Shown: positions 5,745-58,472, numbered from the stretch's first letter. The stretch is DNA of 64,000 bases from Patescibacteria group bacterium (GCA_038062675.1 JBBTWP010000001.1:48920-112919); one strand, 5' to 3'. Notes: generated from the sequence alone by a model not told the origin. Made by a program: numbers and translations.

Positions 5745-6353
5745 CTATCTTGCCGTTGTGCCTTCGGGTTCAGCGGTTTTTTTTATTTTTTTCAATATGA
5801 GCGGAATCTTTTTGAAATCTTCCTTCAGCACCTCGCGCAAGGAACCATTATAGAGCGCTGCAGCGGGGTGGTAGAGAGGAAGGAAATGTTGCTCTTTCCC
5901 CCACATGGGTGCGGTGATGAGGTTGCCATGCGCAGATGATATTTTTTCATGCGGAAAAAAGTGGTTCATGGCGTGTCGCCCCAGAAAAACAACGAGTTTG
6001 GGTTTGATAAGTTGTATTTCTTCTTCGAGCCAGGGTGCACAAGCGGTGATTTCGTCGGGTGTCGGGTCACGGTTGTCTGGCGGGCGATATTTGACGATGT
6101 TGGTTATGTAGACATCTTCGCGTTTCATGCCGATACTTGCGAGCATTTCAGCGAGAAATTTCCCTGCGGCGCCAATGAACGGTCGCCCCTCTTTGTCTTC
6201 TTTTGCGCCTGGAGCTTCGCCAATGAATACAACATCTGCGGTGGCACTCCCATCTCCACGTACCCCCTGCGTTGCAGTCTTTTTTAATTCGCACATGCAG
6301 TTCGTAAGCCACTTTGTGTGGAGTGCGTCGAGTTGGTCGGTCTTGTTCATCAT
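5745..6353 (-). CDS. uracil-DNA glycosylase, family 4
   Basis: GEAPGAKEDKEGRPFIGAAGKFL family-4 UDG motif plus a C-terminal HPAAALY. Confidence 0.85.
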   Translation of the reverse strand: MMNKTDQLDALHTKWLTNCMCELKKTATQGVRGDGSATADVVFIGEAPGAKEDKEGRPFIGAAGKFLAEMLASIGMKREDVYITNIVKYRPPDNRDPTPDEITACAPWLEEEIQLIKPKLVVFLGRHAMNHFFPHEKISSAHGNLITAPMWGKEQHFLPLYHPAAALYNGSLREVLKEDFKKIPLILKKIKKTAEPEGTTAR

Positions 6354-6356
6354 ACA

Positions 6357-6869
6357 CTACTCTTGGTTTTTGGGCAGATATTGTTTTCCCAGCGAGAACG
6401 GTTCATTCGAAAGTACCATCATCCATTGGTTGCAACTTTTGTGTCCGCTGTGCGAGTCGTGCCAGCGTTCGATAAGCTCAGTTTCCTCGAGCTTAAAGTT
6501 TTTTCCGTTCCAAGGATCGTGCAGGATGATGATACCATCTACGTAGCCTGACACAACGGCGTAGTGCCCGTCATCTTCAGATGGTTCAGTGTAATCAATA
6601 ATAACAGGAAGTCCGAGGTTTATAAAATATCTTATTTCATCAACCGATGAATCCGCGTTTACATAACAATAGAACTTTTGATGGAGCGCTGCGTCAATCA
6701 TGCCCTGGTGGCGGGTCCCCGTTTCATTGTCGGTGCTCGCGTGTTTCGCAATTTTTTTCTCAGTCTTAAAAGTGCCAAGAAATGAAAAAACCATTTTGAG
6801 CGAAGCGGGACCACAGGTGTATTCAGTTTTTTGTTCGTGGTAGGGGACGGTGAGTTTCATATCTTTCAT
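6357..6869 (-). CDS. papain-like cysteine peptidase, C39-like (Peptidase_C39_2)
   Basis: YTCGPASLKMV catalytic-Cys motif and a downstream GHYAVVSGY His motif; 4-bp gap to the downstream UDG gene (6353/6357), so co-transcribed. Confidence 0.6.
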   Translation of the reverse strand: MKDMKLTVPYHEQKTEYTCGPASLKMVFSFLGTFKTEKKIAKHASTDNETGTRHQGMIDAALHQKFYCYVNADSSVDEIRYFINLGLPVIIDYTEPSEDDGHYAVVSGYVDGIIILHDPWNGKNFKLEETELIERWHDSHSGHKSCNQWMMVLSNEPFSLGKQYLPKNQE

Positions 6870-7003
6870 ATTCTACTAAATTAGCCGAATATTTGCCAGC
6901 TGATTATTCTGCGAAATTTCTTGTTTTTATGTTTGATAATTAGCTAAAATTATGAGAATATGGTGTTTGGAGTCTCTGTACAACAATTAATGAGGAGGTC
7001 ATT

Positions 7004-7393
7004 ATGACTGCACATTTATCTCTACTTGCAACACAGACTGGAATTCCATTTGCACTACTTGAGGGCGCACTCCACCCATTGCCAGAAGTTGTCTCACAGG
7101 CAACTACCTGTAATGAGGCACAACTGGAATATTATAGTTCGAGACCGGGGAATCCTGCGCGGCACGCTGCACTGAAAAGATGGATTGCTTTGTGTTTCAC
7201 TATTGATGAAATACGTCAGGCTGCTGGTCAAACACTGCTCGGAAGCCAGGATGAAAGTGATGCGTTGATCAAATGGGCTAGTCTCTACACAACTATTCCG
7301 CAAGCACTCGAAGTTCGTAGTCGTACACGATTGGGGAGTGAGGAGGAGCGCGTTGTGCTTCTTAAAATGATTGAAATACACAACGGGAGATAA
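7004..7393 (+). CDS. hypothetical protein
   Basis: 129-aa ORF with SD-like GAGGAGG upstream, followed by an intrinsic terminator. Confidence 0.45.
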   Translation: MTAHLSLLATQTGIPFALLEGALHPLPEVVSQATTCNEAQLEYYSSRPGNPARHAALKRWIALCFTIDEIRQAAGQTLLGSQDESDALIKWASLYTTIPQALEVRSRTRLGSEEERVVLLKMIEIHNGR

Positions 7394-7399
7394 GTTTTG

Positions 7400-7436
7400 A
7401 AAGCCACCAGAAAATTTCTAGTGGCTTTCCTTTTTT
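7400..7436 (+). terminator. rho-independent terminator
   Basis: aaagccaccag / ctagtggcttt stem followed by a T6 run. Confidence 0.7.
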
Positions 7437-7487
7437 GAAGAAGATTGACTTCGAATGGTTTTCAACATAGAATAAACATAAAATACA

Positions 7488-7913
7488 ATGGAAAATACTG
7501 GATTATTTTACGCAATAGGGGCAGCAGTGGTATGGGGGTTAGTGTACACCATCGACCAGAAGATTCTTTCTGAGGTCTCACCTCTTATGCTTTTGTTCAT
7601 AAATTCAATTGTTACCGTAGTAATCTTGTTGCCGTTTGTATTTTTTACCAACACGAAAACAGTTTTCGAAGTTGGTAAAATGGGGTTGCTGCTTATTCTT
7701 GGGGCTAGCTTGTTAGCAGCCCTCGCAAATTTTTTTATTTTTTCGTCAATCAAATCACTAAACGCTTCGACGGCGTCAATAATCGAAGTCTCATACCCAT
7801 TTTTTGTCGTCCTTTTTAGTTTTATTATTTTTCGTGCAGTTCCCAATATTTATTTTTTTCTCGGTGGAGCACTTATTTTTGCAGGAACGTTTGTCATTAT
7901 TAAGCTTGCATAA
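7488..7913 (+). CDS. EamA-like (DMT superfamily) small membrane transporter
   Basis: Four hydrophobic helices in a 141-aa single EamA-like domain. Confidence 0.55.
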   Translation: MENTGLFYAIGAAVVWGLVYTIDQKILSEVSPLMLLFINSIVTVVILLPFVFFTNTKTVFEVGKMGLLLILGASLLAALANFFIFSSIKSLNASTASIIEVSYPFFVVLFSFIIFRAVPNIYFFLGGALIFAGTFVIIKLA

Positions 7914-7921
7914 AGAATTCC

Positions 7922-8737
7922 ATGATCAACCAAAACCCTAAAAAAGAAAAAAAGGCGCCAGTAAAGGCCGGAGCAGACACTTCATGGAACGCCGTGGCGG
8001 GATGGTATGACACCATGATTGAAAAGGACGATGATACCTACCAAACGAAAGTTATTTTGCCGAACATTGTGCGTGCAATGGGTATTAAAGAGGGAACAAA
8101 AGTGCTCGATGTTGCTTGTGGGCAGGGGTTTTTTAGTCGTGCATTTCGTGCAGCAGGGGCGGAGGTTTCCGGCGTTGATGTGGCAACTACGCTCATAGAT
8201 TTTGCCAAAAAGCAGTCCCCGAAAGAAATTCGTTTTTTTGTACGCTCTGCGGAAGACCTTGTTGTTTTTCAAGATGGGTATTTTGATAAGGTGGTTGTTG
8301 TTTTGGCAATTCAAAATATTGAAGCGCCACACAAGGTCTTTAAAGAGTGCGTACGCGTGCTTGCGCCGGGAGGCAAATTGTATTTGGTAATGAACCATCC
8401 TGCGTTTCGCATTCCCAAGGCGAGCGCATGGGGTTTTGACGACGAAGCAAAAACGCAGTATCGGCGCGTTGACCGTTACATGTCAGAATCAAAAAGTGAA
8501 ATCGACATGAATCCGGGGAGACCTTCGGGTAAGAGAGGGGCGACAACCATTTCGTTTCATCGACCACTCCAATACTATTTTAAAACCCTCGCTAACAGTG
8601 GGTTTGCAGTCGCGCGTCTCGAAGAATGGCTTTCTCATCGAGTGAGCGAGAAGGGTCCGCGGCAAGATGCGGAGGATCGAGCGCGCAAAGAAATCCCATT
8701 GTTCTTGTTTCTTGAAGCGGAGAAGCGAGGGAAATAA
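7922..8737 (+). CDS. class I SAM-dependent methyltransferase
   Basis: Motif I VLDVACGQGFFS; Rossmann-like fold pattern. Confidence 0.75.
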   Translation: MINQNPKKEKKAPVKAGADTSWNAVAGWYDTMIEKDDDTYQTKVILPNIVRAMGIKEGTKVLDVACGQGFFSRAFRAAGAEVSGVDVATTLIDFAKKQSPKEIRFFVRSAEDLVVFQDGYFDKVVVVLAIQNIEAPHKVFKECVRVLAPGGKLYLVMNHPAFRIPKASAWGFDDEAKTQYRRVDRYMSESKSEIDMNPGRPSGKRGATTISFHRPLQYYFKTLANSGFAVARLEEWLSHRVSEKGPRQDAEDRARKEIPLFLFLEAEKRGK

Positions 8738-8752
8738 TGGTAGTATAATTGT

Positions 8753-9745
8753 ATGCTCGGTAATATTATCGGTGTATTGATAGCCATTGTCGCGCTTCTT
8801 GGTGCCGGCGTCGTTTCGTATACATATCTCGAGGAGCGATTTGGTCCCGCCGCGCCAACCGAAGTTGTGTTCAAGGTGGAAACAGAGACTCCCGTAGTGC
8901 AACCAAAAACCTCTGGGGGAAGCACTCAGGGTGTTGTTAATGTGCCGACAATACAAAAGAAGTCTGTTCCAGTGAAATCGAGCACACCCGCTCCAATTGC
9001 GGTTACGCCTCAGAAAGTTGTTGTTCCGGGGCCTTTGCGCGCGGAACCTGTCTCCACACCCTTGCCAAGTGTTATTTTGACGGCGCAGGGCGTGTTTGAG
9101 TATACCAATCGTGCACGCGCCGAAAATGGTGGGTTAGGCGCCTTGACGCATAATGAGACTCTCGACCGTATTGCCATGACGAAACTTCTCGATATGTTTT
9201 CAAAACAATATTTTGAACACATATCGCCGACAGGAGTCGGTCCGAGCGACCTTGCGAAAGCGGCAGGTTATGCGTATGTGGTTGTGGGTGAAAATTTAGC
9301 ACTGGGGAACTTTGCCAATGATTCAAAGTTGGTCGATGCATGGATGGCAAGCCCCGGGCATCGCGCAAATATCTTGAATCCGCGATATCAAGAGATTGGT
9401 ATTGCTGCAGGGAGAGGAATGTATGAAGGGCGCGAAACGTGGCTTGCGGTGCAAAGTTTTGGCATGCCTCTTTCTTCGTGTCCTGCCATTGACGCACAAA
9501 AGAAAATGCAAATTGAAACGAATAATGCCACCATTGCCACGATGCGCATAGATCTTGATGCGAAGAAGGTGCAGATTGATACTACGCCACCGAACAATCC
9601 AAAATACAATGTATATGTGGGTGAGTTTAATGTTATGGTAGTGCCATATAATGCTCTGATTGAATCGAGTCGGATTTTAGTCGAGCAGTATAACAGAGAA
9701 GTAAAGGCATTTAATGACTGCGCTGCTGGAACAGCTACAAGTTAA
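8753..9745 (+). CDS. CAP/SCP (PR-1-like) domain secreted protein with N-terminal anchor
   Basis: N-terminal TM helix; CAP motifs GHRANILNPRYQEIGIA and YAYVVVGENLALG. Confidence 0.7.
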   Translation: MLGNIIGVLIAIVALLGAGVVSYTYLEERFGPAAPTEVVFKVETETPVVQPKTSGGSTQGVVNVPTIQKKSVPVKSSTPAPIAVTPQKVVVPGPLRAEPVSTPLPSVILTAQGVFEYTNRARAENGGLGALTHNETLDRIAMTKLLDMFSKQYFEHISPTGVGPSDLAKAAGYAYVVVGENLALGNFANDSKLVDAWMASPGHRANILNPRYQEIGIAAGRGMYEGRETWLAVQSFGMPLSSCPAIDAQKKMQIETNNATIATMRIDLDAKKVQIDTTPPNNPKYNVYVGEFNVMVVPYNALIESSRILVEQYNREVKAFNDCAAGTATS

Positions 9746-9773
9746 GGGAGTAGTCTTGTGATACACTTTGAAT

Positions 9774-10493
9774 ATGTCGACACTTATTTTTGATATTGAA
9801 ACGGTTGGAGAAGATTTTGATGCGCTAGATTCTGCAACTCAAGACGTGCTCACAAAGTGGATTAAAAAAGAATCCGGAGCTCCTGAACATCAGGATGAAT
9901 ATGAACGGGCTCTACAAGACCTGAAAGACGGACTTGGCTTTTCACCACTTACTGGGCAGATCGTTGCCATCGGCGTTCTAGATGACGAGCGTGACAAAGG
10001 TGCCGTATATTTCGATACAAATGGCAAAAAGATGCCCGACCGCGAGGAAGCCGGAATGAAGTTTAAGGCGATGGGGGAGCGCGAGATGCTTGAAAATTTT
10101 TGGCGGGGAGTTGCCGAATACGATGCGTTTGTAAGTTTTAATGGGCGCGGGTTTGACGTTCCGTTTTTAATGGTTCGTTCGGCAATTTATGGCATCCGCC
10201 CATCCAAGGACTTGATGTCGAATCGATATGTCGGGAGTCAAGATTTTGGTGCGAAACATATCGACCTCTTAGACCAGCTTTCTTTCTATGGTGCGGTGCG
10301 TCGCAAGGGAGGGCTTCATTTGTGGTGCCGAGCTTTTGGCATCGAGAGCCCAAAAGCTTCCGGAGTTACCGGGGACGATGTGAAGAGGCTTTTCACGGGA
10401 GGACATTTTGAGGATATTGCGAAGTATAATGCGGGGGATTTGCGCGCCACACGCGAGCTCTATCATCGCTGGAAGAATTATCTCGCTTTTTAG
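9774..10493 (+). CDS. DEDDy 3'-5' exonuclease, PolB-exonuclease-like (RNase H-like fold)
   Basis: Exo I FDIET, Exo II FNGRGFDVPF, Exo III YNAGDLRAT; ATG at 9774 preferred over the TTG at 9768. Confidence 0.65.
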   Translation: MSTLIFDIETVGEDFDALDSATQDVLTKWIKKESGAPEHQDEYERALQDLKDGLGFSPLTGQIVAIGVLDDERDKGAVYFDTNGKKMPDREEAGMKFKAMGEREMLENFWRGVAEYDAFVSFNGRGFDVPFLMVRSAIYGIRPSKDLMSNRYVGSQDFGAKHIDLLDQLSFYGAVRRKGGLHLWCRAFGIESPKASGVTGDDVKRLFTGGHFEDIAKYNAGDLRATRELYHRWKNYLAF

Positions 10494-10628
10494 TGTTTCG
10501 GGAAAGTTTGTCGCTGGTGGAAAAAGCTTGCACAAAAAACCATTTTATACTACACTCACTCATAGATACAGAACATCGTGTCTGAAAAATAGTTCTTTGT
10601 ATTACAATCAACGACCTTGGAGGTCGCT

Positions 10629-10955
10629 ATGAAAAAGTTTGCATCACTGCTGTGTGCAGCTACTTTACTACTGTCCGTAACATTCGTTCCCACCATCGCT
10701 TCCGCAAGTACCATCAATACGGAACTTGCAAGCAACCCCACCGCCACTATTGCTGAAATCGAGAAGATTGGTTTTCCGATGTCGGATGAAATGGCCGGGG
10801 AGATGAGGGGGGAGTTTACTTGGTACAGTATTGCCCTTGGAATTATTTTTGATAACGCCGTGTTTGGTGCCAATGGAAGTAACATTCGTACTACTTTCTT
10901 TTCGCCGATAATGGCATGTTCTGCAACTGTTTCTGGAAGCGGGTACAGTTGTTGA
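10629..10955 (+). CDS. small secreted protein (signal peptide)
   Basis: MKKFASLLCAATLLLSVTFVPTIASA signal peptide; GGAGG RBS; paired cysteines at the C-terminus. Confidence 0.45.
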   Translation: MKKFASLLCAATLLLSVTFVPTIASASTINTELASNPTATIAEIEKIGFPMSDEMAGEMRGEFTWYSIALGIIFDNAVFGANGSNIRTTFFSPIMACSATVSGSGYSC

Positions 10956-10975
10956 ATTGGTTGTTTTTATGTCCC

Positions 10976-11007
10976 AAACGGGTCGGTTTACCCCGACCCG
11001 TTTTTTT
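10976..11007 (+). terminator. rho-independent terminator
   Basis: aaacgggtcgg-tttacc-ccgacccgttt perfect 11-bp stem plus T7. Confidence 0.85.
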
Positions 11008-11040
11008 ATTAAGATTCTGTATCATAATTTTTTTAAAATA

Positions 11041-11508
11041 ATGCTTAATTTTTTTAATCCCGTAAAAGCTGTTTCGGATTATCAGTCTGGGCTTATTTCA
11101 CAGCGGGGGATTCTTTTCCGAAGATATTTTTTCTTTGGATATATTTTTTTGTCTGTGTTTAGTATATTTTTTTTGCCAGTAACAAAATATGGTCTCTACG
11201 ACACCTTTTTTAGTGCTATTTTTCTTATTTTATATATAGGTGTTCCACTTTTGATAAACACAAAAATAGATGGGGAAAATTTTTACACTCGACTTGCGGT
11301 TGTGCATGTTCCTGTTCTTTTCACTACTTTAATTATCTCTACTATTTTGGCAGTATTAACAGCGGTGGTGGTTATTTTTGTAATACCTACGGTAAACATA
11401 GATGCAGTGGCGTTTTTATTACAAACAGTATTGATGTTTTTTAGTATATTTTTCATGGCGTGGTCTTTTAAAAAATACAAATTGAAAAAACCTCCACAAA
11501 AAATATGA
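11041..11508 (+). CDS. hypothetical polytopic membrane protein
   Basis: Four hydrophobic helices; start chosen downstream of the terminator, start uncertain. Confidence 0.4.
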   Translation: MLNFFNPVKAVSDYQSGLISQRGILFRRYFFFGYIFLSVFSIFFLPVTKYGLYDTFFSAIFLILYIGVPLLINTKIDGENFYTRLAVVHVPVLFTTLIISTILAVLTAVVVIFVIPTVNIDAVAFLLQTVLMFFSIFFMAWSFKKYKLKKPPQKI

Positions 11509-11692
11509 AAAAGATTAAGAAGTTTTTTGCATTGATATTTCAACACATTGTTGTTGCGTTAGTATCGTGGTTTTAGTAGTAACATAATCTGGGTAGAAGA
11601 AATAGTTCATCAATGGAGGGAAATACCTTGCGTTTTAAGCCACAAAAACTGAGTGTTTTGTTTGGAGTGCTTCATCGTGGTACGATACTTGT

Positions 11693-12508
11693 ATGTCTGA
11701 CTTTTATAAACCTCACCGAAAACCCGATTGGAATTATGGCGGTCCGCGCTGGCGTCTCTCTCGTTCAAAGATCGAGCTTTATACAGAGTGCCCTCGGTGT
11801 TTCTTTGTTGACAACAAGCTTGGCACGGCACGCCCTCGTGGACCCGCGTTTACTATCAACATTGCTGTTGACACCTTGCTCAAAAAAGAATTTGATGCGC
11901 ATCGTGTGGGGAAAACTTCTCATCCGCTCATGAAAAAGTATGGTGTTGACGCAGTACCGTTTGCACACAAAAACATGGATACATGGCGAGAGAATTTTGA
12001 GGGAGTGGAGTACAAAGACCCACAAACTGGATTTGTGATTTCGGGTGCAGTGGACGATGTTTGGGTAAACCCCGCCGGCGAGCTCATGGTGGTGGACTAC
12101 AAAGCAACCTCAAAAGAGGGAAGCATAGAAACGCTCGCGGATTCTTCATGGGAAGGGCAGTACAAGCGCCAGATAGGTGTGTATCAGTGGTTGTTGCGCA
12201 AAAACGGTTTTAAGGTTTCAGATACAGGGTATTTTGTGTATGCAAATGCAGGTACCGACAAAAAGGCATTTGATGGGCAGCTTGAGTTTGAGGTCACGCT
12301 GATTCCCTGCAAAGGAGAGACGGAGTGGATTGATACAGTATTGCTCGAAATAAAGAAATGTTTGGAGACCAACGAGATTCCCGAGGTCGGTCCACAATGT
12401 GATTTTTGTAAGTATCGCAAAGCAGCGCGCGATGTACAACAAGATTTTCGTGTAAAGAATACAAAAGAAGCAAAAACCGGAAAAGGAGGGGGAAGTTTGT
12501 TTGAGTAA
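11693..12508 (+). CDS. PD-(D/E)XK nuclease with Cys cluster (Cas4/RecB-like)
   Basis: E-x-DYK motif (ELMVVDYKATSKE); N-terminal CPRC and C-terminal C..C..CDFC cysteines suggest an Fe-S cluster. Confidence 0.6.
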   Translation: MSDFYKPHRKPDWNYGGPRWRLSRSKIELYTECPRCFFVDNKLGTARPRGPAFTINIAVDTLLKKEFDAHRVGKTSHPLMKKYGVDAVPFAHKNMDTWRENFEGVEYKDPQTGFVISGAVDDVWVNPAGELMVVDYKATSKEGSIETLADSSWEGQYKRQIGVYQWLLRKNGFKVSDTGYFVYANAGTDKKAFDGQLEFEVTLIPCKGETEWIDTVLLEIKKCLETNEIPEVGPQCDFCKYRKAARDVQQDFRVKNTKEAKTGKGGGSLFE

Positions 12509-46553: not shown

Positions 46554-47630
46554 ATGGCAAAAGATTATTACAAAATATTGGGGGTAGATAAAAAGGCAAG
46601 CGCGGACGAAATTAAAAAAGCGTTCCGTAAGCTCGCGCACCAGCATCACCCCGACAAAGGGGGTGATGAGAAGAAGTTCAAGGAAGCCAGCGAAGCGTAC
46701 CAAGTGCTCTCGGACGACAAAAAGCGTGCCTCGTATGATACGTATGGAGAAGCGGGGGCGCAAGGGTTTGGTGGGCACGGAGGAGGGCAGGGTTTCGATC
46801 CTTCAGGCTTCGGTGGTTTTAACACGCAGGGGTTTAGTGGCGATATTGACCTCAATGACATTTTCGGAGAGTTTTTTGGCGGTGGACGCCGAACGGCTCC
46901 TGAAAAGCGTCGTGGGCGAGATGTTTCTGTTGACCTTGAAGTTTCTTTTTCCGAAGCAATTTTCGGCGTGAAGCGCAAGGTGCTCATCACCAAAACTTCT
47001 TCTTGCACCACGTGTGATGGTACGGGCGCAAAGAGTGGTACTCCAATGAAGACCTGCGCCACCTGTGAAGGAAAGGGGAGTATTGAGGAAACAAAACGTT
47101 CGTTCTTGGGCGTCTTTTCACAAACACGCGAATGTTCGACATGTGCTGGTGTGGGGAAAATCCCTGAACAAAAATGTGCGGAATGCAAAGGACATGGCGT
47201 GCTTCGTCGTGAGAGTGAGCTTACCATTGAAATTCCAGCAGGTATCCAACATGGAGAGATGGTGCGCCTTTCTGGCGCGGGGGAGGCGATACAGAATGGA
47301 ACTTCGGGTGACTTGTATGTGAGAATCCGTGTCGCCCCACACAAAGTATTCCATCGTGAGGGACAAAATCTCGTTATGCATCTTTCAGTGAAATTCACTG
47401 ACGCTATTTTGGGCGCCGAATATCCAATAGAAACATTGGACGGCAAAATAGATTTGTCGATTCCGAAAGGGGTGTCGTCGGGTGAGGTTCTGCGTGTGCG
47501 CGGCAAGGGGGTGCCCATGGGCGCCAAGCATCGTGGTGACCTCCTCATAAAACTTGAAATAAAAACCCCCACCAAACTTTCCCGCCAAGCACTCAAGCTT
47601 GTTGAGGGGTTGAGAGGGGAGGGGGTGTAG
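46554..47630 (+). CDS. dnaJ: molecular chaperone DnaJ
   Basis: J-domain HPD motif; G/F region; four CxxCxGxG repeats. Confidence 0.95.
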
Positions 47631-53487: not shown

Positions 53488-53522
53488 GCTAGTTAACCTC
53501 CTGTTTTGAGGTGTATTTTGAC

Positions 53523-53892
53523 TGTACTATTCACGGGCGCAGGGGAAGCTATTCAGAATGGCACGGCAGGTGACTTGTATGTCAGAATTCACGTCGCCCC
53601 ACATAAAGTATTCCATCGTGAGGGACAAAATCTCGTTATGCATCTTTCAGTGAAATTCACTGACGCTATTTTGGGCGCCGAATATCCAATAGAAACATTG
53701 GACGGCAAAATAGATTTGTCGATTCCGAAAGGGGTGTCGTCGGGTGAGGTTCTGCGTGTGCGCGGCAAAGGGGTGCCCATGGGCGCCAAGCACCGTGGCG
53801 ACCTCCTTATAAAGCTTGAAATAAAAACCCCCACCAAACTTTCCCGCCAAGCACTCAAGCTTGTTGAAGAACTGCGGGGGGAAGGTGTATAA
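53523..53892 (+). pseudogene. truncated duplicate of the dnaJ 3' end (C-terminal domain fragment)
   Basis: About 95% nt identity to 47270-47630, including a ~170-nt identical core; no J-domain or zinc finger. Confidence 0.85.
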
Positions 53893-53895
53893 TGA

Positions 53896-54585
53896 ATGTA
53901 CATGAATTTATTTTCTTGGACCCCGTTTATTTTGCAGACAATGGTATACCCGTTCACATGGGTCGGGTTAAGATTTTTTACACACATTCGTATCTTGGGA
54001 GAAGAAAATTTAGTGGGACATACACAAGGAGTAATCTTTGCTGTTAATCATCTCAGTGAACTTGACCCAATTCTAATCCCTGCAACACTGAATCCTTTTT
54101 CTCCTTTAATGCCTATGTTTTATACCGCTCGTGAGCGGTTTTTTTATGAAAAAAAAGGGCTTGCACAGTATTTTTATGGAGGCACCTTTTTTAAACTTTG
54201 GGGAGCATACACTGCGTATGTTGGGACAGGGGATCTCGCTTTGTCGCTTAGGCACCATATTCGCATTCTGAAAAAAGGAAAGAGCGTATGCATTTTCCCT
54301 GAGGGAGGTAAAATTCCAGAAGGAGTTATTATTGAGGGGAAAACCGGTGTTGCGTATTTGTTGTGGAGAACAGGGGTGCCAGTAATTCCTGTTGCTATGC
54401 GCGGACACTATAAAATGACTTCTCGAGAGTTTTGTGCGCGTACGCGCACAATCACGGTTTCATATGGAAAACCCATCACAAAGCAAGAACTTTTTAATTT
54501 GCGCCCAGATCCTGGGGTGGTACCCACGCGAGAAGAACTTCGTACTGCCACACATATCATTATGTCGCGTATTCGTGAGATGTAA
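53896..54585 (+). CDS. plsC: 1-acyl-sn-glycerol-3-phosphate acyltransferase (LPLAT family)
   Basis: NHLSELD (HX4D) and FPEGG motifs. Confidence 0.8.
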   Translation: MYMNLFSWTPFILQTMVYPFTWVGLRFFTHIRILGEENLVGHTQGVIFAVNHLSELDPILIPATLNPFSPLMPMFYTARERFFYEKKGLAQYFYGGTFFKLWGAYTAYVGTGDLALSLRHHIRILKKGKSVCIFPEGGKIPEGVIIEGKTGVAYLLWRTGVPVIPVAMRGHYKMTSREFCARTRTITVSYGKPITKQELFNLRPDPGVVPTREELRTATHIIMSRIREM

Positions 54586-54683
54586 AAAGATTTTTTTGTT
54601 TATGAATGCAAAGTAGGATTCTGTTTGGTATAATAGAGGAGGAGAATATAAGTCAAATTATTTTTTTAAATTAATCTACAAAA

Positions 54684-56318
54684 ATGCTTAGTCAGGAAGC
54701 CCTCCAAAAAATTTTAGGCATCAAAGAAGATGTGTATGTTACTCCAGAAGAAATGGCTGACAAGCTAAACATCACTTTTTTTCCGTATGACCCTAGATCC
54801 GCTAGTGCTCAAGTGTTGAAATTTTTACAACAACTGGAAAAGACTTTCTTGGAATTAAATGTAAATATCGTTCCGTATGAAAAAGCGCTCGTTAAAATTC
54901 CAACGAGGAAAATTTTAAAGAAAGTATATCTTCTGTCTCTTAATAATCTTTTTTATGTACTTGAAAAGATTACAGGAAGGGGTTCTGGTCGAAATTATGT
55001 TGAACTTTCAGCGATAAAAAAAATGCTCTTGAGACCAAAGAGAGTGAAGGCCGGCATTTCGATTATTGCTATAGCCAATGAGAAGGCAGGGGAGTTGCCA
55101 ATTGATTATACTTCGAGTTTTCGACACAGTTCTGTTGTGACGGTGCTCGATATGCCAAGTAATATCTCAAAAGAGTCTACTTTCCATGAACATTTTGATA
55201 CGGCAATGTCTTTGTTTGCACAACATATGACCAATATTGTGATTGGAGTGAACCAAAAAGAATGGATACTATATAATTTTAATGCTTCTCATCCAGTATA
55301 TCCGCTTCATGAAAATTTCAAGGCTAACATTTTGAAGGCGTTGATTTCAAAAATTGTTGCACCGATTATGCCATACCGTTTTTCTGATTTTGCAGCCACC
55401 TCCGAGCATTTTAAAGTAACTGATGAGCCATACAAAAGTCTTGTTGCGGATTTTTTGGCAAGTGGAGAACTCCTCGAAAAAGCTTCTCTTTATCCGAAAG
55501 GAAAAAAAATAAATGATTTGCCATTTCGGAATGAGTTTTATAAATTGGTAGGTAAAATACATTTGGATAATAGAAGTGGGATGAGCTATGGGTTTCTTGC
55601 GTTGCAGATGCCGGTGAATGTTACGCCTGCAGTTCTCTTTGAAAAATCTCCAGAAAAAGAATTTTTCATGAATACAAAAAAAGATTATATAGTAAAGGAA
55701 GATGGAACAATTTTTATTGCAGTAGAATTGTCGCAAGCAAAGTATGTTGTAAAAGTTCCTGATATTTTTGTATTGTCTCAAAAATCTGGTTCTGATAAAA
55801 CAAATTTTAATCCAGACAAAGATTTGATCAGGCTTGGCTTGGTTAAGGGGGCGATGGTTCTTGCGACGCCGGAAGGTCTGGTCCTTACTTCGGATTTTAA
55901 GCCTTCTTTTGACACCAAAGTCATTCTTGCTCATGCGGTGGGGAATGCAATTGTTGCCTCGCTATTGAAAGTGGTTGAAAAAGAATCCAAGTTTGTGGAT
56001 ATGCTTGAAGCGCGGGGTATGGCACTTGTGCATTGGCATGGATATGTGAATCAGAAATTTATCCCTGACAATTTCCATGTACATGGTGCGGGGAATCCGC
56101 ATGTTTCTTGTTCTTCTCCACAATCTGCCCTTTATGCTATTGATGGAAAATTACGAGCTTTTTCTCACGCGCTCACAGAAGGAGTTGGCTATTTGGGCGA
56201 TGTGCACATTGAGCCACACCATGGAACAAACATGACTTTCCCGTCGCTTGAGGCGTTTGGGAGGTTTGTAACGAGTGGTCCAGAAGTCACATCCTTGGGT
56301 AATAAGTATCTCCACTAA
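54684..56318 (+). CDS. hypothetical 544-aa soluble protein
   Basis: No recognisable motif; His-rich C-terminus; 5-nt gap to the downstream histidine kinase. Confidence 0.5.
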   Translation: MLSQEALQKILGIKEDVYVTPEEMADKLNITFFPYDPRSASAQVLKFLQQLEKTFLELNVNIVPYEKALVKIPTRKILKKVYLLSLNNLFYVLEKITGRGSGRNYVELSAIKKMLLRPKRVKAGISIIAIANEKAGELPIDYTSSFRHSSVVTVLDMPSNISKESTFHEHFDTAMSLFAQHMTNIVIGVNQKEWILYNFNASHPVYPLHENFKANILKALISKIVAPIMPYRFSDFAATSEHFKVTDEPYKSLVADFLASGELLEKASLYPKGKKINDLPFRNEFYKLVGKIHLDNRSGMSYGFLALQMPVNVTPAVLFEKSPEKEFFMNTKKDYIVKEDGTIFIAVELSQAKYVVKVPDIFVLSQKSGSDKTNFNPDKDLIRLGLVKGAMVLATPEGLVLTSDFKPSFDTKVILAHAVGNAIVASLLKVVEKESKFVDMLEARGMALVHWHGYVNQKFIPDNFHVHGAGNPHVSCSSPQSALYAIDGKLRAFSHALTEGVGYLGDVHIEPHHGTNMTFPSLEAFGRFVTSGPEVTSLGNKYLH

Positions 56319-56323
56319 TATTT

Positions 56324-58024
56324 ATGGATATTCTTTCAGAAATAAATTATTACAGTTTTGCACTACTTCTTGGCGGGGTGGTTGCCTTAGTTTCTGGTAT
56401 CAGTGTTTATTTGAAAAGTGAAAAAGGAGAACAGTACGGTGTATGGTTATTGTTGAACATTAGTAGCGCGGTATGGAGTTTTGGATACTTTATAATGATT
56501 CTTGCAAAGAGTGATAAAATCGCCTTGTGGAGTAATTGGATGCTCCATTTTGGTGCAATTTTTATCCCAGTTCTGTATTTTTTGTTCATTATTTTTATAA
56601 CAGACGCATATAAAAAATACAGACGATATATATATGTTGGAGTTATTTTTTTACTTTTCTTTTTAATCACTAACACAACAACGTTTTTTGTGAAAGGGGT
56701 TTTACCAAAATATGTTTTTAATTACGCTCCTGACGCCGGACCCCTATACCCATATTTTACGGCCTACTTCTTTTTCTTTATTGGACTTGCTATCTTCATT
56801 TTGATATTAAAAATTTTAAGGACTGAAGGTCAAGAAGCTTTGCGTTTAAAATATATTCTGTGGTCTTCTATCGCAGGGTTTCTTGGTGGGGGAAGTGTAT
56901 TCTTTTTAACATTCAACGTGGACATACCACCATATCCTTTGATTGCATTCTCTCTTTACCCGTTAATTATCGATTACGCAATTCTTAAACACAATCTTTT
57001 TAGTATTAAGGTTATTCTTGTTGAGCTTGCTGTTTTTCTTTTGAACTTATTTTTGTTCCTCAATGTTTTGACTTTTAATAGCATAGACAGCTTTATTCTT
57101 AACGGATCAGTATTTTTGGCTACTCTCATTTTTAGTGTGTTACTTTTGCGAACGATTTATAAAGACATTCGAATACGTGAGAGGGTTTCGGAGTTGGCAA
57201 AGCAAATGATGGTCGCCAATGACCGGTTGAGGTATATGGAAAAACAAAAAACAGAATTTGTTTCCATTGCGTCTCACCAGTTGCGTACGCCCCTCACGGT
57301 TATTAAGGGATATGTGTCCATGATTAGAGAGGGGACGTTTGGACCTCTTTCTGAGAGTGCTCGTGATGCAATGGACAAATTGCATAAATCCAGCGAAAAA
57401 ATGGTGGAACTTGTGGAAGACCTCCTAACGGTTTCTCGGTTGGAACAGAAGCGCGCAGTGCTTCGCTTTGAGGTTACTGACGTTGTGCGTATGATGCGCA
57501 ACATTATCGCCGGAGTGGAAGACGAGGCTGATCATGTGGGGCTTAAAATGTCCCTTGTTGCGCCGGCGGACATGAAATTTCTTTCTATGATCGATGAGAA
57601 AAAGTTTATTCAAGCAATAAAACATATCTTGGATAATGCCATTCGATATACAAATCCACCCGGTTTTGTGCGTATTGTGATTTCAAAAAGCACTCTGCCG
57701 GGAATGATTCGAATTTCTATTTCAGACACCGGCATGGGGATGACTGAAGAAAAATTGCGATCTCTTTCGGAACAACTTGATTTCAAGGCAAGTGCGGTGG
57801 TTGCCAGACTTAAGACAATAATGCCAAAAACAAAGCACCAGCCCGGAGAGGTTCTCGGTCAATCGGAGGTAAAAAATGCGCCAACAGGAGACAAGACAGT
57901 AGGGGTAGGTCTCTACATCGCTAAAGAGATCATCTCTGCACATCGAGGCAATATTTGGGCAAAATCCGAGGGCCTGAATAAAGGAACTACGGTTATTGTG
58001 GAAATTCCCGAGGTGAAGAATTAA
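56324..58024 (+). CDS. sensor histidine kinase with 7TM N-terminal domain
   Basis: Seven or eight TM helices; HisKA H-box SIASHQLRTPLT; HATPase N, G1 and G2 boxes. Confidence 0.85.
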   Translation: MDILSEINYYSFALLLGGVVALVSGISVYLKSEKGEQYGVWLLLNISSAVWSFGYFIMILAKSDKIALWSNWMLHFGAIFIPVLYFLFIIFITDAYKKYRRYIYVGVIFLLFFLITNTTTFFVKGVLPKYVFNYAPDAGPLYPYFTAYFFFFIGLAIFILILKILRTEGQEALRLKYILWSSIAGFLGGGSVFFLTFNVDIPPYPLIAFSLYPLIIDYAILKHNLFSIKVILVELAVFLLNLFLFLNVLTFNSIDSFILNGSVFLATLIFSVLLLRTIYKDIRIRERVSELAKQMMVANDRLRYMEKQKTEFVSIASHQLRTPLTVIKGYVSMIREGTFGPLSESARDAMDKLHKSSEKMVELVEDLLTVSRLEQKRAVLRFEVTDVVRMMRNIIAGVEDEADHVGLKMSLVAPADMKFLSMIDEKKFIQAIKHILDNAIRYTNPPGFVRIVISKSTLPGMIRISISDTGMGMTEEKLRSLSEQLDFKASAVVARLKTIMPKTKHQPGEVLGQSEVKNAPTGDKTVGVGLYIAKEIISAHRGNIWAKSEGLNKGTTVIVEIPEVKN

Positions 58025-58154: not shown

Positions 58155-58472
58155 ATGAATTTTGCAGTAATCCAGACAGGCGGTAAACAATACAAGGTCG
58201 CTCCGGGCGAAATGCTCACGATTGAGAAGCTTCCGGGCGACTTTAAAAAAGGGGACAAGATTGTTTTTGATCAGGTTCTCTTGGTCAACGACGGCTCAAA
58301 GACTCTTGTTGGAGCACCACTTGTTTCTGGGGCAACCGTCGAAGCTGATTTTGAGGAGAATGGCCGTGGTAAAAAAGTCATTGTCATTCACTATCGCCAA
58401 AAGAGCCGTCATTTTAAAAAGAACGGACATCGTCAGCCTTACACAAAAGTAAAGATAAGTGCAATTAAGTAA
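58155..58472 (+). CDS. rplU: 50S ribosomal protein L21
   Basis: MNFAVIQTGGKQYKV. Confidence 0.9.
   Translation: MNFAVIQTGGKQYKVAPGEMLTIEKLPGDFKKGDKIVFDQVLLVNDGSKTLVGAPLVSGATVEADFEENGRGKKVIVIHYRQKSRHFKKNGHRQPYTKVKISAIK

Follow-up and report, generated by a model that had tools for sequence, protein, structure and literature searches.

The X gene and its neighbors

In a 64,000-nucleotide stretch of DNA from a Patescibacteria group bacterium (GCA_038062675.1, JBBTWP010000001.1:48920-112919; hereafter, the window), we studied a gene for a 544-amino-acid (aa) protein, here called X, together with the sensor histidine kinase (HK) gene that follows it. X is encoded on the plus strand at 54684..56318, from an ATG start to a TAA stop in the open reading frame (ORF) listing, and a 5-nt spacer (TATTT, 56319..56323, +) separates this TAA from the ATG of the kinase gene (566 aa, 56324..58024, +), which was assigned by Pfam matches and transmembrane (TM) prediction. 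The next gene after the kinase is rplU (58155-58472; Ribosomal_L21p, E 1e-35). The initial annotation of this DNA, made from the sequence alone, had described both the 5-nt distance and the downstream rplU correctly; it did not mention the gene directly upstream of X, which is a member of the same conserved block. This first gene of the block (53896..54585, +) encodes a 229-aa acyltransferase (AT) that matches PF01553 above the cut-off (Pfam, E 5.4e-17) and carries an HX4D motif (HLSELD) at residue 52 and PEGG at residue 135. By family match and motifs it is of the PlsC type (lysophospholipid/1-acylglycerol-3-phosphate-like), its substrate specificity being only predicted. We refer to the three genes as the AT-X-HK block.

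A conserved family without annotation

X has no match in Pfam-A (E ≤ 0.1), NCBIfam (E ≤ 0.1) or the PDB sequences (best E 0.77), in line with the earlier statement that it resembles no recognized family, and a profile search with the X family, like the single-sequence search, found nothing that would identify it from sequence. A database record identical to X (AAB552_00655, from a metagenome-assembled genome of a Patescibacteria group bacterium) is annotated "hypothetical protein." A word-indexed search returned at least 358 homologous clusters (~50% identity), of which the best 120 are nearly all full-length, 47 to 73% identical, labeled "hypothetical," and from Parcubacteria/Paceibacteria-type lineages, whereas an exhaustive HMMER scan of 1.84 billion representatives gave 180 X-family clusters at E ≤ 1e-3. 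The family is therefore well conserved yet phyletically narrow. We found no publication describing the X family or its pairing with a kinase; the fold of X and the two-component parts are of kinds already known, but the family itself, its N-terminal fusion, the fixed association with a 7TM kinase, and the occurrence in lipid clusters have so far gone undescribed.

Two alignments were used to find residues under constraint, a narrower one (A1) and a broad one (A2) of 35 members with identity down to 20%. P230, R297, G303, S368, G369, K372, D380, P407, S408, D410, H450, H452, G468, C476, E510, H513, and G514 are invariant in A2, and the H450-W451-H452 and H513-G514 motifs are invariant in A1 as well. 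With the exception of P230, all of these lie in or at the edge of the C-terminal domain described below. X has no predicted TM segment except for one buried helix of its fold, and 9 of its 19 histidines fall within residues 445 to 520, including HWHGY (450-454) and HIEPHHG (508-514), so that the initial description of a soluble protein with a His-rich C terminus holds. This His-rich region most likely represents a three-His metal site, as judged from its motifs.

Homologs of X also occur in three loci on contigs labeled Thermoplasmata/Thermoplasmatales (L057, L059, and L063; L059 with ~70% GC), at 39 to 42% identity to the protein from the candidate phyla radiation (CPR, or Patescibacteria). 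They are closer to the CPR protein than are the Omnitrophota or Staskawiczbacteria versions and are accompanied by neither kinase nor acyltransferase; the neighbors of X are a short-chain dehydrogenase/reductase (SDR) and a glyoxal/galactose-oxidase-like protein in L059, and a sulfotransferase in L063. These cases could reflect horizontal transfer into halophilic archaea or mis-binning.

Predicted fold and putative catalytic site

An AlphaFold2 model of X built on 36 sequences (pLDDT 90, pTM 0.90) predicts two regions, an N-terminal alpha/beta three-layer domain (residues ~1-230, 54684..55373, +; strands at 29-32, 69-71, 119-130, 151-156, and 185-207) and a C-terminal domain (residues ~284-544, 55533..56318, +) with the alpha/beta/alpha fold of class II (metal-dependent) aldolases/adducin (PF00596). 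Foldseek matched the model to RhaD with a probability of 0.99. The C-terminal domain contains, in order, G299-M-S301, S368-G369..K372, P407-S408-F-D410, H450-W-H452, and H513-G514, with an extra beta insertion of about 50 residues (~310-360) between the first two motifs. Escherichia coli FucA, for which the reference sequence corresponds to PDB 1fua end to end (E 5.8e-144), has its motifs in the same order: G28-N29..S31, T43-G44, P70-S-S-E73, H92-x-H94, and H155-G156. Written as an ordered pattern (G.{1,2}S / [ST]G / PS.[DE] / H.H / HG), these motifs match FucA at 28-156, X at 299-514 and 34 of the 35 A2 members, compared to 1 of 10,500 shuffled family sequences and 1 of the 407 ORFs of the window, i.e., none besides X; the pattern was written after inspection of both X and FucA, and its match counts should be read accordingly.

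X thus appears, from its motifs, to carry the three histidines, the acidic residue, and the phosphate loops in the order canonical for PF00596. Based on invariance and motif order, the codons of H450-W451-H452 (56031..56039, +) would encode the first two metal ligands (corresponding to FucA H92/H94) and those of H513-G514 (56220..56225, +) the third (corresponding to H155-G156). The putative active site would then comprise H450, H452, and H513 as metal ligands, D410 as acid/base, and phosphate loops formed by G299/S301, S368-G369, and S408, together with R297 and K372.

With the members of the class II aldolase/adducin superfamily (FucA, RhaD, AraD, MtnB, OtnC/YgbL, pyruvic oxime dioxygenase, TqaM, and NovR), X shares the fold and the motif order. 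It differs from them in that (i) there is no detectable profile similarity, and the ~50-residue beta insertion is additional; (ii) aspartate instead of glutamate occupies the acid/base position, and R297, K372, and C476 are further invariant residues; (iii) an alpha/beta region of ~280 residues, which the known members lack, is fused to the N terminus; and (iv) its genomic context consists of lipid/polyketide synthase (PKS) clusters and a sensor kinase and not of sugar catabolism. The relation of X to class II aldolases holds at the level of fold and motifs only. No diverse class II aldolase profile could be assembled from a large-database search with E. coli FucA, as the 120 matches listed were all enterobacterial FucAs with ≥85% identity.

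The N-terminal half of X is modeled as a Rossmann/flavodoxin-like alpha/beta domain. It has no family-wide invariant residue before P230 in A2 and therefore probably serves docking or regulation. We considered a Rossmann dinucleotide-binding motif in this half and dropped it, the stretch in question (GISVIALGE) not being conserved outside the close clade. A hidden receiver domain was rejected as well: no acidic pocket is conserved, the only candidates for one (E/D132 and D156) being 89% conserved in the close clade, with N, Q, and E tolerated, and lost in the wider family. Moreover, there is no Response_reg (PF00072) match in this half, and hhalign against the single sequence of CheY gave no signal. 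These findings contradict the initial suggestion that X is a noncanonical substrate of the kinase.

Conservation of the X-kinase pair

The neighborhoods of X were compared in 82 loci besides the window, 78 from a scan of species-representative genomes with the A1 profile, surveyed by phmmer over six-frame ORFs, and 4 other distinct loci. A HisKA_7TM kinase directly follows X in 71 of the 82 (5 of the 5 first sampled, ~66 of the 78 from the genome scan, plus L091, making 71 distinct loci), and among the Patescibacteria loci with sufficient flanking sequence, practically all have it immediately 3′ of X in the same orientation. The estimated spacing from the X stop to the kinase start has a median of 2 nt and falls between -20 and +30 nt in 68 of the 71 loci, with many overlaps of 1 and 4 nt. 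An AT homolog is found immediately upstream of X in ~45 genome-scan loci and within a few kilobases in others. In five neighborhoods retrieved by exact protein look-up, AT-X-HK is intact while the flanks differ, with a ribosomal operon in one (L003) and an ISL3 transposase in another (L005).

The X-kinase pair spans many Patescibacteria lineages, Omnitrophota, and one diderm lineage, with varying flanking genes. Because the pair recurs in ~70 independent genomes at a median spacing of 2 nt, its adjacency is not due to chance, and because it persists across lineages while the flanks change, a functional partnership of X and the kinase is very likely. X and the catalytically intact 7TM kinase are an ancient, translationally coupled pair, with the PlsC-type AT as the usual third member.

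The 7TM histidine kinase

The kinase matches HisKA_7TM at residues 14-228 (E 8.5e-14), HisKA at 308-375 (E 1e-18), and HATPase_c at 424-563 (E 4.5e-18), and its seven predicted TM segments lie in a sensor region of residues ~1-275. The claim of a complete kinase with a 7TM receptor domain, an H-box, and N/G1/G2 boxes is therefore sound, and the protein has all the features of a two-component sensor kinase. The phospho-accepting His318 (codon at 57275..57277, +; H-box SHQLRTP) is kept in 68 of 68 orthologs, and N438, D468xGxG, and G527xG are each kept in 65 of 65. Since their catalytic boxes are 100% conserved, the orthologs are predicted to be active kinases. Several polar or aromatic residues inside the TM helices are also conserved (W51, S52, Y55, H75, GGGSVF at 188-193, T196, P203, Y212, and P213); such strong conservation of polar residues within the membrane points to a defined site there. 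Between the TM region and HisKA, the window kinase has no cytoplasmic sensor domain detectable by Pfam.

This last feature would fit an arrangement in which X itself is a cytoplasmic co-sensor or accessory subunit, binding a metabolite at its aldolase-like site, docking on the dimerization/histidine-phosphotransfer (DHp) and catalytic (CA) domains, possibly via a pseudo-receiver N-terminal domain, and switching the kinase, so that the pair forms one sensor; this comes close to the idea put forward in the initial annotation. The 2-nt median spacing and the frequent start/stop overlaps suggest stoichiometric coproduction, X and the kinase form an invariant core while AT, FadL, and receivers vary around it, and the N-terminal half of X has no invariant catalytic residues, as expected of an interaction domain. 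However, all of the catalytic-type residues stay invariant even at 20% identity, also in homologs that have no kinase beside them, which argues for an ancestral and maintained catalysis. We consider a co-sensor role possible but rather unlikely.

Three further observations concern the kinase genes. In the window kinase, the segment between G1 (DTGMGM) and G2 (GVGLYI) measures 54 residues, compared to 23 to 28 (mostly 27) in every other ortholog with a catalytic domain; residues ~474-526 (~57743-57902) thus hold a genome-specific insertion of ~27 residues in the ATP-lid region. In one Falkowbacteria locus (L060), the 7TM part is apparently split from the GAF-HisKA-HATPase part, with a 100-aa ORF (9614-9916) followed by a 618-aa ORF (9926-11782), which represents either a frameshift/assembly error or a genuinely split sensor. 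Finally, in eight loci that form one sub-clade (L036, L039, L040, L053, L054, L056, L058, and L064; ~6200-8000 in each locus), a second histidine kinase, in divergent orientation, lies between AT and X, directly upstream of X; in at least four of them the 7TM query matches this second kinase too, more weakly.

Receivers and the output of the kinase

No receiver domain was found in the window by phmmer with CheY, PhoB, and Spo0F against 407 six-frame ORFs of ≥60 aa (best E 0.023, a spurious short ORF), and none was found within ±8 kb in most Paceibacteria-type loci. In four loci of deeper-branching lineages, on the other hand, the kinase is directly followed by a stand-alone receiver (PF00072, 124 to 129 aa), namely, in Falkowbacteria (L060), L061, Staskawiczbacteria (L074), and Omnitrophota (L080, with two receivers), and in several of these the kinase additionally has a GAF domain. 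The layout X-7TM(-GAF) kinase-single-domain receiver of these lineages may be the older one. The initial annotation had called the kinase an orphan, proposing an unconventional signaling pair with X as a ligand-binding or accessory component, and had named a regulator beside the locus in a related assembly as evidence to the contrary. Its observation that the window encodes no response regulator stands. The four receiver-adjacent loci partly supply that contrary evidence and weaken the idea of a regulator-less, unconventional system: the kinase family has a conventional partner type in relatives, so that the window kinase is probably an orphan only by position. Its receiver would have to be encoded elsewhere in the genome, and its output is probably posttranslational, since stand-alone receivers act through protein contacts. 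As to the proposed role of X, the pairing is conserved and likely functional, but X resembles an enzyme and neither a substrate nor a mere ligand-binding accessory; the pair may yet be unconventional if enzyme and kinase are in physical contact.

The scarcity of receivers near the Paceibacteria-type loci and in the window would be accounted for if X were a noncanonical phospho-acceptor that replaces the response regulator. The missing acidic pocket largely excludes this idea, which we regard as barely credible: E/D132 and D156 are not retained in the wider family, neither Response_reg nor CheY detects anything in X, the conserved histidines fall at the position of the metal site in the aldolase fold, and basal relatives have their receivers directly after the kinase.

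Lipid-gene contexts of X homologs

Distant homologs of X (22 to 33% identity), with every invariant residue retained, are found in lipid/PKS clusters with no histidine kinase, and the primary role of the family therefore looks enzymatic rather than signaling. In a Thermodesulfobacteriota locus (L082), X lies without a kinase in the order DAGK_cat/YegS lipid kinase, PlsC-type AT, X, HIBADH-type dehydrogenase, and Zn-dependent alcohol dehydrogenase. In two cyanobacterial loci (L085 and L090), a free acyl carrier protein (ACP) stands at the end of a polyunsaturated fatty acid (PUFA)-synthase-like cluster and is followed by an X homolog with a TubC_N docking domain and an adjoining SDR; in another lineage (L087), the TubC_N-X protein follows a fatty acyl-AMP ligase (FAAL)-ACP didomain. 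These three proteins are full-length homologs of X, encoded at 10001-11896 in L085, 10001-11872 in L090, and 10001-11854 in L087.

Lipid genes also accompany the kinase-linked versions. In Omnitrophota (L080), the order is PlsC-type AT, a START-Rossmann protein, X, 7TM-GAF kinase, two receivers, SDR, and two ketosynthases; in Staskawiczbacteria (L074), a CDP-alcohol phosphatidyltransferase adjoins the kinase-linked X; and in a low-GC diderm contig (L091), X is placed between a FadL/Toluene_X long-chain fatty-acid channel and the HisKA_7TM kinase. Outside CPR, NAD(P)-dependent oxidoreductases lie beside X in L059, L082, L085, L089, and L090, and further downstream in the L080 cluster. X homologs thus sit at points of lipid pathways where acyl chains are handed over, and the family seems to handle activated or imported acyl chains, probably together with carbonyl/phosphate chemistry.

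The cyanobacterial branch occurs widely, its only annotation being "TubC N-terminal docking domain-related protein" (e.g., Nos7524_0279 and Cylst_1199). These proteins are true full-length X homologs with 22 to 28% identity and all invariants kept; they differ from X by the extra N-terminal docking domain (PF18563), by the ACP that precedes them in PUFA-synthase-like clusters, and by the absence of an adjacent 7TM kinase. In every case, the TubC_N-X proteins come after a carrier protein, in either a PUFA-synthase-like or a FAAL setting. They are uncharacterized enzymes of secondary-lipid clusters, on which recent surveys are silent.

A proposed lipid-handling module with a membrane sensor

CPR bacteria make up a large share of bacterial diversity. 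Fatty-acid synthesis, ACP, and PlsX are missing from CPR bacteria, Parcubacteria included, yet these organisms possess PlsY and PlsC and have normal acyl lipids; where Parcubacteria obtain their activated acyl groups is unknown, and how CPR activate and insert scavenged acyl chains is recognized as an open question (Probst et al. 2020, PMC7242380). Since PlsX and ACP are missing while PlsY and PlsC are present, some enzyme must supply the acyl groups.

We propose that X is a metalloenzyme of a lipid pathway, coupled in function to a kinase that senses the membrane, and not a substrate of that kinase, a statement to which we give about an even chance in its general form, i.e., including acyl and phosphorylated or anionic carbonyl chemistry, sensing by the kinase, and a receiver encoded elsewhere. 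AT-X-HK would then be a lipid-handling module with a built-in membrane sensor. In such a module, X, as a soluble metalloenzyme, would join an acyl-chain-derived substrate, delivered by a carrier protein in cyanobacteria and taken up from the surroundings in CPR, with a dihydroxyacetone phosphate (DHAP)-type phosphorylated or anionic carbonyl compound, and the resulting lipid intermediate would be acylated by the neighboring PlsC-type AT. The kinase, made by translational coupling with X, would sense the lipid substrate, the product, or the state of the membrane through the polar residues in its seven-helix domain, and would signal through a stand-alone receiver that is adjacent in basal lineages and encoded elsewhere in the window genome. 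As for the chemistry, X might condense DHAP with a long-chain aldehyde or acyl substrate in an aldol-type reaction, the product then being reduced by the recurrent oxidoreductases, or it might supply activated acyl groups in the manner of PlsX/Fak.

A number of points weigh against this proposal. Pfam Aldolase_II matches only 1 of the 35 X-family members, at E 0.2, and X itself yields no PF00596 profile match, having no Pfam hit at E ≤ 0.1; hhalign of A2 against the single sequence of FucA gave a probability of 0.2% and placed HWHGY opposite a FucA motif other than the expected one. With no profile match, X is at best a very remote, structurally defined relative and not a PF00596 member by curated criteria, and since no sequence-level link was obtained, the residue equivalences between X and FucA are based on the fold and the sequence of motifs and not on a superposition. 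Proteins with the class II aldolase fold catalyze aldol, epimerase, dehydratase, decarboxylase, and dioxygenase reactions, and the fold consequently leaves the reaction of X open. Further, the lipid contexts come from homologs with only 22 to 33% identity, the contexts of L088 and L092 are uninformative, and that of L089 is likewise uninformative or too short. In the clade of the window, finally, the block sits among housekeeping genes (dnaK/dnaJ, aminoacyl-tRNA synthetases, and ribosomal proteins) and not among lipid genes, and part of the AT-X-HK synteny in Paceibacteria could be inherited gene order.

Taken to its limit, the last point would make the adjacency meaningless, X being a common central-metabolism enzyme for sugar phosphates (aldolase, epimerase, or decarboxylase) that was inherited beside a kinase. 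The fold and motifs are indeed those of sugar-phosphate enzymes, and the Paceibacteria block lies in a syntenic housekeeping region, with GrpE-DnaK-DnaJ upstream and aminoacyl-tRNA synthetase/ribosomal genes downstream. Yet the X-kinase junction survives next to a ribosomal operon (L003), next to ISL3 (L005), and beside a 6.3-kb insertion in the window; it is kept with different neighbors in Falkowbacteria, Staskawiczbacteria, Omnitrophota, and the FadL lineage; and its spacing stays at ~2 nt. Non-CPR contexts are lipid/PKS clusters and not sugar catabolism, and some X homologs carry a docking domain for carrier proteins. We therefore judge this explanation very unlikely; if it were correct, the finding would reduce to a new, remote branch of a known superfamily.

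The proposed lipid-handling module can be compared to several known systems. In CqsA-CqsS, LqsA-LqsS, and LuxM-LuxN, as in X-HK, the gene of an enzyme lies beside that of a kinase with a purely membrane-embedded sensor, and acyl-derived chemistry is plausible in both cases. This layout, known from Vibrio and Legionella, raises the alternative that X synthesizes a hydrophobic signal for which the 7TM kinase is the receptor. The kinase has no extracytoplasmic domain, the polar residues of its TM helices, including H75 and GGGS, suggest a discrete intramembrane ligand site, and X homologs are found at the product-release end of acyl assembly lines. On the other side, the fold of X is unrelated to those of CqsA and LqsA (pyridoxal-phosphate [PLP]-dependent enzymes) and LuxM, and X has no hit to an aminotransferase/PLP or LuxM family in Pfam or NCBIfam, so that only the gene layout is alike. 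The X pair is accompanied by AT, phospholipid genes, or a FadL importer; the frequency of PlsC-type AT and phospholipid genes points to bulk lipid metabolism, the FadL partner suggests import of a hydrophobic compound instead of export, and the block contains no conserved export gene. Signal synthesis by X is accordingly an improbable account of the pair.

DesK-DesR of Bacillus subtilis offers a parallel for membrane homeostasis, a plausible role in both systems, in that a TM-only sensor is tied genetically to a lipid-modifying enzyme. DesK, with its 5 TM helices, is a HisKA_3 kinase, and its regulator DesR is DNA binding and encoded adjacently; the receivers of X-linked kinases, where present, are instead stand-alone (124 aa). 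Also, X is translationally coupled to its kinase, whereas the enzyme of the DesK system is a regulated target encoded elsewhere. With PlsX (acyl-ACP:phosphate transacylase) and FakA/FakB, X would have in common only its pathway position, beside a PlsC-type AT, after carrier proteins, and with FadL in one lineage; it has no fold or sequence relationship to any of the three. To our knowledge, no acyl-phosphate chemistry has been reported for the class II aldolase fold.

A bolder version combines these elements. X would be the missing entry enzyme of CPR membrane-lipid assembly, turning a scavenged acyl chain and a DHAP-type phosphate into a C-C-linked lipid backbone or into an activated acyl donor that replaces PlsX/Fak, and its pseudo-receiver-like N-terminal domain would connect it physically to a 7TM kinase reading the lipid state of the membrane, as one machine that needs no adjacent response regulator; the same family would then perform an unrecognized chain-release or head-group step in cyanobacterial PUFA-synthase-like "secondary lipid" clusters. 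In this combined form, we consider the idea unlikely.

In either form, X is a concrete candidate for acyl-chain handling in CPR, that is, a conserved, unannotated enzyme family with a recognizable catalytic site, located beside a PlsC-type AT and coupled to a membrane-embedded kinase, and it may help to explain how these bacteria build and monitor their membranes. The products of the cyanobacterial PUFA-synthase-like clusters that hold X homologs are unknown, and because the same family occurs there, tractable cyanobacteria (Nostoc and Anabaena relatives) provide a route to the chemistry of X. If the coupling between enzyme and kinase is also physical, this would be a new type of connection between a metabolic enzyme and two-component signaling.

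Other features of the region

The 98-nt spacer between AT and X contains a possible, weak extended -10 element, TGGTATAAT (54626..54634, +), ~50 nt 5′ of the X start. It was noticed by eye and not called by a consensus scan, and promoter-like sites in the region are not enriched compared to shuffles. The consensus scan for terminators found no terminator-like site at the X-kinase junction; both scans are too little enriched to delimit the transcription unit.

Upstream of AT there is a second copy of the 3′ end of dnaJ, a 128-aa ORF (53506-53892) that shares 95% identity with the C-terminal 122 residues of the full DnaJ (46554-47630). A 300-nt direct repeat (47274-47573 and 53536-53835; 94% identical, copies 6262 nt apart) brackets six genes, which encode an aminotransferase, an unknown protein, an M20 peptidase, a low-molecular-weight protein tyrosine phosphatase, tyrosyl-tRNA synthetase, and prephenate dehydratase. 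Since relatives show GrpE-DnaK-DnaJ and then directly AT-X-HK, the window genome has undergone an insertion or rearrangement of ~6.3 kb just upstream of the operon. Across the window (1-64000), all 2-kb bins have a positive GC skew, the cumulative skew climbs monotonically, and nearly all long ORFs are on the plus strand; accordingly, the window in its entirety belongs to one replichore, shows a strong gene-strand bias, and contains neither origin nor terminus.

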